The notes: generated by a model not told the origin, from the sequence alone. DNA of 64,000 nt from Dictyostelium discoideum (GCA_000004695.1 CM000150.2:3680001-3744000), one strand, 5' to 3'. Counted from the stretch's first letter, positions 13,972-16,189 are shown. A program made the numbers and translations.

Positions 13972-14687
13972 AAAATATAATAAAATTAAATATATATATA
14001 TATAAACAAGTTGACGTTATCGATAATAGGAAAATCCATGAATGTTTTTTATTAAAATTTTTACTTTTTATACTTGGGTTCTAATGTAACGAAAGCAGTA
14101 GTTCTTCGTTACAATAACTATTTCAATTATTAACTTCAAGTTCATTTATATTAGTTTTATTATAATTATTCATTTCTAAATTAGTTTTATTTTTAATATT
14201 CTTTTTATAGTATAATATTTTAATTAATCTCTTTTCAGTATTTTATGTCAACACATTTTATTTAGTATGAAATGTAAATTAGAATTTTATTATTTTCAAT
14301 TTATTATACTCATCCTTCAAGAGATAATAATATATTAAAAAGAAATAATAAATAAATAAATAATTAAAATTAAATTAAATAAATAAAATTCTAAAAGCTT
14401 ATTAAATTAAATATTAAATAAACAAACAACAATTGAAACAAAACTATAAATATCTCAAATAATAAATTATTTAAAATAGATAAGTATTATAAATTTATAT
14501 TTAAATCATAAAAAAAATTTTAAATTATCAAAAAAAAAAAATTTATTATATTATATTTAAAAAAAAATTATAAATATATAAAAAATCAAAAAAAATTATA
14601 TTTATTATATTATATTTAAAAAAAAGTAATAGCTATTCTTTAAAAAAATTATTATTTTTTCTTCTGTTTGATTTCTTTTTGGTGTTG

Positions 14688-15408
14688 TTATTGCGCCATT
14701 TGGTTTGTTGTGGCAATGTTCTTGGTGTTGTGCTTCTTTGTTTGTGGTAGTGTTTGAATAGCTATTACTTGTTCTTTGTGTTGTTGTGCTTTTGGTTTGA
14801 CGCCTTTTTTTGTGGTAGTTATTGATAATCTTTTGAAAAAAAATACAAAAGAGGATGTATTTTTAATTACAGGTACTTTTTCATTTTGGACTTGTGTTTT
14901 GGGTAATGTTGTATTGTTGTATTTTCTAATGTATGGTTCTGGAAATTTTTTGTGACATTTAATATGATCCAAATATTCATCTTTATTATTAAAACTTTTA
15001 CCACGTATACCATTTGACATATATATATATGAAAGGAGAACTGTATGAGCCAACTTTAAATGAAATTCAAAAGATTGACGTGTGAGAAATTCTTGGCAGC
15101 AGACTTTAACCATGCATTTGAGTTTTTCATAGCCATGTTGAATGTAATGGCCAATCTTTTGGAGTTCATTTTGAGGTAATCAATACCACAGATTTTACCA
15201 TTATCCAACCATGAGCATTCAGATTCAGTATGACTCTCCAAATCAGATCCTTCACATTTGAATGGTTTACAATTATTTTGACGTGCAATTTAATATCACA
15301 AACGGAATTACCACAATCGTTACAAACAGATCTTTCTTTGATATCTTCTTCAACTTCTTCAACAACACCACGTTTTGGATATTCAAATTGAACTTCAGTA
15401 TTATTCAT
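14688..15408 (-). pseudogene. frameshifted Cys/His-rich (C2H2 / CX4CX7HX4C-like) coding remnant inside a GC-richer island (about 14040-15880); possible transposable-element or zinc-finger gene relic
   Basis: Three overlapping minus-strand ORFs in three different frames (15408..15166, 15241..15056, 15113..14688). Together they read as one Cys/His-rich sequence (CNDCGNSVCD, CKPFKCEGSDLESHTESEC, KCMVKVCCQEFLTRQSFEFHLKLAH, HIKCHKKF). No AT-rich intron-like blocks lie between the frames, and base composition is unlike the flanking DNA. Confidence 0.3.
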
Positions 15409-16189
15409 GACACCTTCATTTCTCTGTTTTATAAATGTTAAAAAAATATAGGTAATTTATAATTTTGAAAATTTATATTTATATAATTGTTATCTTACAT
15501 TGATCAAAAGATCATTCAAATGGTACTACCACTATTTTGAAAGTTTTGAGAACTATTGAATAGCAATCAATGCCATCTACATTAAAACTAAATACTCGTA
15601 AGCTATAGAGGTCTGTGAACCAAATTATGCAATCTATTGATTTATCATATGGAATAATATAACCCTGTGATGAATTTAGTATTTTGAATATAGAAAATTG
15701 TATTGTACAACCTCGCCATCATCAATATAATCACCCATGACTTTATATGAGAGAATGGATGCTACAATTTAGTTTATCCAAAAATGATGAGAACTTTTGA
15801 GTTTCATTATATAAAATTAATATGTATAGTTTTCAAATTTTGAAAAGTGCTCAAACTTGAATGGTTTTTATAATATTTATTTTTTTTGTCTTTAAATTAT
15901 ATTTTTCAAATAAAGTTTGGTTTATTAAAAAAATTAAAAAAACTTTTATTTTTTTATTTAAAAATGAAAAAAAAGAGTAGCTTTTTTTATTTAGTTTTTA
16001 TTATTAATAGCGATATTGAAAAGAGTTTAATAAATTTGGAAGAATTGTTTAACGATCAGATAAAATAACCCTATAAATTAGAAATTTATTAAAAGATTAG
16101 TATTTTTGTAAAATATACATATATTTTATTATTTTCTTTCTTTATTTTTTTTCCCCAAAAATAAAAAATGAAAATATTTCAATGATTTG

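Follow-up and report, generated by a model that had tools for sequence, protein, structure and literature searches.

Locus, composition and existing annotation

The DNA analysed here, referred to as the window, is a 64-kb (64,000-nucleotide) stretch of chromosome 1 of Dictyostelium discoideum AX4, and positions are counted from its first letter. Exact protein matches in the window are found for racG, fructose-1,6-bisphosphatase (fbp) and DDB_G0269836. On the minus strand, between a Pmp3-like gene and a DUF341/FSH1 gene, lie the remains of a coding unit that extends from 15738 to approximately 14650 and consists of two exons and one intron. The GC content at about 14650-15850 is 0.24-0.34 as compared with 0.07-0.17 in the flanks. 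The initial annotation had drawn a GC-richer island from 14040 to 15880, which is correct for approximately 14650-15850 but not for 14040-14640, which is plain AT-rich spacer; the GC content of the 'island' is the usual exon composition for the D. discoideum genome.

An 80-aa ORF at 15166-15408 on the minus strand clusters with DDB_G0270660 (Q55CZ9, XP_646332.1), a 122-aa hypothetical protein, and the relic therefore sits on an annotated, uncharacterised gene model; no paper mentioning DDB_G0270660 was found in the literature. The AX4 model covers only part of the locus, including the segment 15283-15423 described below as the first frame of exon 2. Judged from the sequence of P0019, the Q55CZ9 model has a non-ATG start (ATA) and an upstream non-consensus splice donor (GTACCA), and about 38 of its residues are read in a frame with a negative codon score. 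A newer D. discoideum assembly has two gene models at the locus that are discordant with the AX4 model. DDB_G0270660 and these two models are probably gene-finder artefacts that bridge the frame breaks by way of doubtful starts and splice sites.

Exon-intron structure and reading frames

The path of the reading frame was established from six-frame translation, position-specific GC content and a codon-usage log-odds model trained on the nine confirmed ORFs of the window, all of which agree. Translations and the codon-usage scan bear out the initial description of a Cys/His-rich minus-strand sequence that reads through three frames, and cysteine and histidine together account for 11% of the residues in the repaired exon 2 as opposed to 2.9% in the confirmed genes of the window.

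Exon 1 (15499-15738, minus strand) is delimited by translations, coordinates and the codon-usage scan. It opens with an ATG at 15738 and reads MGDYIDDGEVVQYNFLYSKY up to a stop, and the codon-usage scan places a frame change near 15690. A second piece in another frame, GYIIPYDK...VVPFE, occupies 15664-15515 and a third, YHLNDLLIN (15525-15499), runs up to the splice donor. Exon 1 contains no recognisable domain and has no Pfam hit. With modest codon-usage scores and no homologue it is best regarded as a putative coding segment; a weak tblastn match of an exon 1 piece to L008 at 13348-13467 (E = 0.002) is probably a chance match, because by its position it would lie antisense to a low-complexity RS-rich gene.

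A canonical Dictyostelium-type intron of 75 nt separates the two exons (15424-15498, minus strand; 12% GC, GTAAGA...AAAACAG, phase 0). The assertion that the frames are broken without intron-like blocks is accurate for the frame switches of exon 2, which lie in DNA of 33-37% GC, but overlooks this one intron at 15498-15424. A 43-nt GT..AG stretch at the switch from frame 1 to frame 0 was considered as a short intron and rejected because introns of Dictyostelium are longer and poorer in GC.

Exon 2 is read on the minus strand in three successive frames. The first, RNEGVMNNTEVQFEYPKRGVVEEVEEDIKERSVCNDCGNSVCDIKLH (15283-15423), gives the strongest coding signal of the locus, with a GC content of 0.57 at first and 0.10 at third codon positions. 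The second, IARQNNCKPFKCEGSDLESHTESECSWLDNGKICGIDY (15176-15289), has a codon score of +13 to +15 where the other frames are negative, and holds a CCHC-like motif at 15271-15215 as well as the N-terminal half of what is termed here finger 2 (CGIDY, 15190-15176). The third frame comprises 163 codons (14691-15179) and ends at a stop at 14690-14688; it contains in order the C-terminal half of finger 2, finger 3, an (AT)6 tract (15030-15019), the remnant of a finger 4 and a low-complexity tail. Within this part, a 141-aa ORF at 14688-15113 contains the intact finger. A fourth frame switch is possible near 14770.

Zinc fingers and protein similarity

Both Cys/His motifs that had been singled out at the start are present. 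The motif C-x4-C-x7-H-x4-C corresponds to CKPFKCEGSDLESHTESEC at 15271-15215, and C-x4-C-x12-H-x4-H corresponds to CMVKVCCQEFLTRQSFEFHLKLAH at 15116-15045 and conforms to the classical C2H2 definition of C-x2-4-C-x12-H-x3-5-H with a conserved hydrophobic core. The latter, finger 3 (15045-15116, minus strand), is the sole intact classical finger of the locus and follows the pattern C-x4-C-x3-F-x5-F-x2-H-x4-H. It is preceded by finger 2 (15136-15190, minus strand), which is split by the shift from frame 1 to frame 0, as is apparent both from a direct count and from alignment across the junction. The C-terminal half of finger 2 together with its linker reads HYIQHGYEKLK (15149-15117). From the Cys codon in CGIDY to the first His codon in HYIQH there is a gap of 38 nt, where the canonical C-x12-H spacing takes 36 nt. 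Since 38 equals 36 plus 2, a 2-nt insertion in a once-continuous finger is likely. The remnant of finger 4, RGKSFNNKDEYLDHIKCH (15005-14952, minus strand), has an Arg codon, CGT, where a TGT for the second Cys would be expected. This emerges from the alignment with human ZNF410 (PDB 6wmi), in which 'EGCGKSF...H' stands opposite 'NGIRGKSF...H' of AX4. The array has one intact finger and a further two to three that are degenerate, with 'KPFKC' and 'EKLKC' as linkers. The CCHC-like motif itself opens with KPFKC, which combines the C2H2-linker signature with the first Cys, and it lies inside this degenerate finger array; about 500 nt more of finger-bearing sequence follow it, and the motif is not terminal in an ORF.

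The exact frame-0 piece (the third frame of exon 2) was searched exhaustively with phmmer against 1.84 billion representative proteins, and four proteins were returned. P0025 is a 109-aa gene model of the same locus from another D. discoideum assembly, P0027 is a plant low-complexity protein, and P0026 (E = 1.8e-9) and P0028 (E = 4e-4) are tandem C2H2 proteins of metagenomic origin that agree with the AX4 sequence in their fingers and linkers (HG.EKLKC-x4-C-x12-H-x4-H). Models of this locus and generic C2H2 proteins aside, the search found no homologue of the frame-0 piece among the representatives, and no similar predicted protein in the approximately ten dictyostelid proteomes that the database holds. 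When the repaired exon 2 is compared with P0026 and P0028 by BLASTP, the consecutive fingers 2-4 are aligned and the frame junction is crossed, the alignment passing from 'CGIDY' in the second frame directly into 'HYIQHGYEKLKC' in the third.

The Pfam scores of the locus are below threshold, at 13.7-15 bits for zf-C2H2_4 (curated cut-off 27) and 15.9 for the ZNF451-type family (cut-off 30). Low Pfam scores are usual for one isolated C2H2 finger. No match was found for the N-terminal ~130 residues of the relic, and the IMG/VR scan gave no relatives. A word-index search for proteins, with the frame-repaired product of 357 aa as query, also returned nothing, a negative that is weaker than it appears because the self-hits P0018 and P0019 were missed as well.

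Frameshifts between strains

Two further genomes bear on whether the frame breaks exist in nature. The assembly GCA_054883475.1 (L005) has 0 mismatches to AX4 over the 3 kb from 16500 to 13500 and differs only in a poly(A) tract near 13905-13940. A Logan contig (SRR28564543; L006) has the same frames as AX4, with 3 additional nt at 15640 and 4 additional nt at 15031 that arose by (AT)n slippage and break the 141-aa ORF. The initial annotation had allowed that the frameshifts might be sequencing errors and that other strains might have an intact ORF. Some candidate shift sites do lie near short A-runs, but with an independent de novo assembly that is identical over the whole coding-like region and a short-read contig that has the same frames and further indels, the idea that errors in the reference sequence or its assembly conceal an intact gene is extremely improbable. 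The frameshifts of exon 2 are real, and slippage indels are still accumulating between strains.

The same data are relevant to the reading in which one or two small genes still function here, namely DDB_G0270660 (122 aa) and a downstream gene like the model KAM9940985.1 (109 aa), with the frame changes marking gene boundaries or introns. Protein-coding genes have indeed been called here by two independent annotations, codon usage is still gene-like and the 141-aa ORF has an intact finger. The two annotations are, however, mutually discordant, the AX4 model depends on the ATA start, the GTACCA donor and the stretch of ~38 residues in a negative-scoring frame, and a zinc finger straddles the supposed gene boundary. 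Moreover, the frame-0 ORF is broken by the 4-nt indel of L006, its sequence has no homologue in other dictyostelid proteomes and the whole body of the unit is deleted in close relatives (see below). Functional genes at this position are accordingly considered quite unlikely, although it is conceivable that a short product is made, either from the 141-aa ORF with its intact finger or in the form of the annotated protein of 122 aa.

The syntenic slot in related genomes

Syntenic loci were located via the neighbouring genes in L003, L004, L001, L002, two D. citrinum assemblies and D. firmibasis, and the flanks align in all of them. Coding identity to AX4 is 98% for L003 and L004, which are wild D. 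discoideum (one shared coding gene), 96% for L002 and 94% for L001, both designated 'D. cf. discoideum', 89% for D. citrinum and 86% for D. firmibasis. D. purpureum was considered as an outside comparison, but its FSH1 gene lies at a contig end and the slot is hence not recoverable.

The body of the relic (14721-15818, minus strand; 1098 bp) is present only in AX4-type genomes, namely AX4, L005 and L006. In L003 and L004 an unrelated sequence of 163 bp takes the place of 15818-14721, and the only part of the relic that is kept is its 3' tail (14665-14720, minus strand) at 95% identity, with small indels such as those between AX4 and L003. The stretch 14500-14449 is kept as well and is followed by a separate 1388-bp insert at 14448 with small Cys-rich ORFs. 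At the breakpoint, 14721, the sequence still has a coding score, for which reason the state of L003 and L004 is read as a probable secondary deletion.

An AT-rich low-complexity block at 14501-14664 with imperfect tandem or direct repeats is absent from L003 and L004. The direct repeat noticed initially was only partly as described, in that the quoted 32-nt sequence occurs exactly once (14594) and it is a 25-nt core within this block, tttattatattatatttaaaaaaaa, that occurs twice (14542 and 14601). The 8-bp inverted repeat GTAACGAA-N11-TTCGTTAC does exist, at 14086-14112 rather than 14088-14116, but it lies outside the relic, is not conserved and is missing from L003 and L004 because of a 15-nt indel there.

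Further out, no sequence related to the relic was found at the slot in L001, L002, the two D. citrinum assemblies or D. firmibasis at either the DNA or the protein level; unmasked blastn against the L001 and L002 slots gave AT-rich noise only, which was discarded. The block 15819-13900 is specific to D. discoideum. The content of the interval between the Pmp3-like and DUF341/FSH1 genes differs in every lineage examined. In L001 it harbours a TnpB/Fanzor-like relic (PF07282, E = 6e-5), the ORFs of which gave no hit among PDB sequences, in L002 it contains a 215-bp palindrome with arms of 65 nt, and in D. citrinum it measures only ~0.4 kb. On grounds of parsimony the gene would have arrived or arisen in the D. 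discoideum stem lineage once L002 had split off, the polarity of gain and loss being a parsimony judgement at a slot where every lineage differs.

The diversity of the slot invites the reading that the relic travelled, as a passenger or accessory gene, with a DNA transposon or another mobile segment into a hotspot of structural variation, and that it decayed after insertion. The lineage-specific contents, comprising the TnpB/Fanzor-like relic of L001, the L002 palindrome, the 1388-bp insert of L003 and L004 and the ~0.4 kb of D. citrinum, agree with this, as does the restriction of the block 15819-13900 to D. discoideum. On the other hand, neither terminal inverted repeats nor a target-site duplication came to light around the AX4 block, where all matches were low-complexity A/T ones. 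There is no transposase domain and no other copy in 218 kb of related loci, and the inserts of the other lineages do not resemble the relic. Its codon usage and its intron are native and argue for long residence in a dictyostelid genome. A mobile passenger is therefore an unlikely origin. An extension of this idea, of about the same low probability, supposes that mobile or transduplicated DNA has landed repeatedly in the Pmp3-DUF341 interval across the D. discoideum species complex, and takes the relic as decayed cargo of an undescribed element and not as a resident host gene that died. If this were true, the AX4 relic, the TnpB/Fanzor-like relic of L001, the MITE-like palindrome of L002 and the wild 1.4-kb insert would represent independent captures.

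Search for mobile-element features

The spacing C-x4-C-x7-H-x4-C resembles that of the CCHC motifs at the C-termini of non-LTR retrotransposon ORF2 proteins, and the locus had initially been considered a possible ORF2 tail for this reason. The ORF2 of TRE elements comprises APE, RT and ZF domains, and TRE elements integrate ~50 bp upstream (TRE5) or downstream (TRE3) of a tRNA gene (PMC5633606). When the repaired proteins and every ORF on either strand were scanned with Pfam, no RT, endonuclease, integrase or transposase was detected. The report that no tRNA gene lies nearby holds for the whole 64-kb window when scanned with ARAGORN, and Rfam likewise gave no hit across the window. A second copy of the relic was found neither in the window nor in the 218 kb of related loci, no paralogue exists within the window, and no relatives among TE proteins were found in the databases. 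The initial annotation had named the lack of a match to any repeat family as grounds for refutation, and no such match appeared in the window, in these loci or among the database proteins. With respect to LTR, DIRS and Skipper elements there is no GAG zinc knuckle, RT, RNase H, integrase or tyrosine recombinase, and there are no long terminal direct or inverted repeats. None of the genomes examined presents a clean empty site.

The reading of the locus as a 5'-truncated non-LTR retrotransposon of the TRE type, whose Cys-rich motif would be the ZF at the end of ORF2, draws on the single motif at 15271-15215 and on the variable presence of the segment between lineages. It is contradicted by the lack of RT and APE in any frame and of tRNA genes in 64 kb, as well as by the canonical spliceosomal intron within the unit. 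Beyond the motif come ~500 nt of coding sequence with classical C2H2 fingers, and the coding strand lacks a following A-rich tail. In addition, TE-protein relatives and a second copy in 218 kb are wanting, and the breakpoint in L003 and L004 falls within coding-like sequence and not at the end of an element. The retrotransposon assignment is hence not supported and is regarded as very improbable. A retro-copy, which would be devoid of introns, is equally at variance with the 75-nt intron inside the unit, and since this intron is kept, the relic is not a retro-copy.

A probable dead C2H2 zinc-finger gene

The alternative put forward initially, a zinc-finger gene relic, is supported by the match to P0026 (E = 1.8e-9), by alignments that cross the frame 1 to frame 0 junction and by the presence of the frameshifts in an independent assembly. 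It is proposed, with a probability of roughly 0.8, that the locus represents a lineage-restricted, apparently single-copy, two-exon C2H2 zinc-finger gene that is now dead, in other words an ordinary pseudogene. The ancestral product would have been a small protein in which classical C2H2 fingers (C-x4-C-x12-H-x3/4-H) were arrayed in tandem and joined by KPFKC and EKLKC linkers. In AX4-type genomes exon 2 is broken by two or more frame-shifting indels, among them probably the 2-nt insertion within finger 2, exon 1 has at least one more disruption, and Cys and His ligand positions have been substituted. The 1.1-kb gene body is missing from the closest wild lineages, and the slot of the more distant species contains no related sequence.

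The designation as a pseudogene draws on internal evidence, namely the broken frames, the degenerate fingers and the polymorphic indels, and it is in keeping with real frame disruptions that are accompanied by frame-breaking polymorphism and by loss in relatives, signs of a neutral decay that still goes on free of purifying selection. On the same sequence-based grounds the relic is unlikely to have a present function. Neither an intact orthologue nor a parent gene was found, and the original protein is for this reason not reconstructable. In its codon usage and its canonical intron the relic is typical of Dictyostelium, and these native features argue against a recent foreign origin.

The relic has no bearing on open mechanistic questions and its main value is for annotation, where DDB_G0270660 (Q55CZ9) and the two models of the newer assembly call for a common label as a single pseudogene. 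Beyond this, it provides a small and well-resolved case of how a gene dies in the compact genome of an amoeba, with frameshifts in one lineage, a deletion in its sister and absence from the outgroups, and it draws attention to the unusually high structural turnover of the Pmp3-DUF341 intergenic slot in the D. discoideum species complex.

Comparison with known systems

The relic resembles TRE5 and TRE3 in having one Cys/His motif of CCHC order and in its presence/absence variation between lineages. Unlike these elements it has no APE or RT and no nearby tRNA gene, contains an intron, carries classical C2H2 fingers downstream of the motif and is single-copy within the window and the 218 kb of related loci.

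With tandem C2H2 proteins such as human ZNF410, P0026 and P0028 the relic shares the geometry C-x4-C-x3-F-x5-[FL]-x2-H-x3/4-H with the fingers in register. Tandem proteins of the C-x4-C type have linkers of the form H-G-x-(E)KL(K)C or TGEKPF-x-C, and 'GYEKLKC' and 'KPFKC' of the relic are alike. It differs from them in that only one of its fingers is intact, the others having lost ligand residues or been split by frameshifts, and the likeness to ZNF410, P0026 and P0028 is generic to the fold and does not amount to orthology. The C-x4-C-x12-H-x4-H geometry is also found in two neighbouring C2H2 genes of the window (21971-25246 and 25440-26852); a recent local duplication of these genes was considered and rejected, with pairwise E values of at least 0.2.

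Another parallel is with unitary or lineage-specific pseudogenes, processed by decay, that carry an annotation as hypothetical proteins, with which the relic has in common its frame disruptions, polymorphic indels, deletion in a sister lineage and gene models that bridge the breaks. A duplicated pseudogene, in contrast, has a visible parent, whereas no surviving functional parent or orthologue of the relic was found.

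A variable slot between the Pmp3-like and DUF341/FSH1 genes

The decayed C2H2 zinc-finger pseudogene of Dictyostelium discoideum AX4 lies in a slot between a Pmp3-like gene and a DUF341/FSH1 gene, and judging from the sequences compared this slot looks like a hotspot of structural variation. It corresponds to positions 11172-16483 of the window, to 3254-5093 and 5077-5476 in the loci of two 'D. cf. discoideum' genomes (L001 and L002), to 3014-4676 in a wild D. discoideum genome (L003) and to 6158-6569 and 5871-7185 in two further syntenic loci (L007 and L008). In length, this intergenic slot ranges from ~0.4 kb up to 2.3 kb across the lineages examined, and the DNA that it holds is unrelated between all of the D. 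discoideum complex lineages examined.

A small island of higher GC content lies immediately upstream of the relic and corresponds to the Pmp3-family proteolipid gene (16301-16483, minus strand; PF01679, E = 3.9e-18). Conservation of this gene is detectable in both 'D. cf. discoideum' genomes, in the wild D. discoideum genomes L003 and L004 and in the independent D. discoideum assembly GCA_054883475.1, and a Pmp3 gene is called at the syntenic position in D. firmibasis. Directly downstream of the gene, the motif AAAAG is repeated ~18 times as a microsatellite (16235-16327).

Within D. discoideum, a TAG-interrupted poly(A) tract of 108 nt (13868-13975) is the sole site at which AX4 and GCA_054883475.1 differ over 3 kb. 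Two sites in the relic itself vary in length between AX4 and a Logan contig from SRR28564543. One is an (AT)6 microsatellite inside the longest ORF of the relic (15019-15030), the other a CAA triplet of exon 1 (15640). The word-index protein search missed P0018 and P0019, two database protein models of the relic locus, despite 42 identical residues in common with the query, and its negatives are therefore weaker for short, Logan-only cluster representatives.

Other genes of the window

Two adjacent large poly-N/Q-rich genes on the minus strand (21971-25246 and 25440-26852) encode zinc fingers of the form C-x4-C-x12-H-x4-H, the same geometry as in the relic, with which they share no significant sequence similarity. 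Two large transmembrane kinase-like ORFs (34667-38221 and 44815-47421) look paralogous. Further along, two ORFs ~4 kb apart on opposite strands (48354-48743, minus; 52329-54083, plus) share a nearly identical stretch of ~130 residues, which is the C-terminal part of the aminopeptidase-like one. This pattern suggests that a puromycin-sensitive-aminopeptidase-like gene was duplicated in inverted orientation.

Slot content in related and wild genomes

In the 'D. cf. discoideum' genome GCA_054859235.1 (L001) the slot contains a called gene of 280 aa (3425-4601), which is oriented on the strand opposite to that of the AX4 relic. The ORFs of this slot carry the TnpB/Fanzor-like motifs IVIGKYT, INEDYTSQ, CCKC and HRDDNAFGN and match PF07282 (Cas12f1-like TNB) with an E-value of 6e-5, just under the cut-off; a PDB sequence search gave no match. 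The slot of the second genome, L002, holds a palindromic MITE-like element of 215 bp (5191-5405), in which two 65 nt arms with 92% complementarity enclose a spacer of 85 nt. No copy of this element was found among the other sequence compared, comprising the window and related loci (218 kb).

The wild genomes L003 and L004 share a 1388-bp insert (3289-4676 and 3301-4694, respectively) that is specific to these two. Its ORFs yielded nothing significant in Pfam. In L003, one is a 55-aa CxxC zinc-ribbon-like ORF (3333-3500) and another (4160-4333) is rich in Gly, Ser, Cys, His and Pro and is reminiscent of the small hssA/sigN-type proteins.
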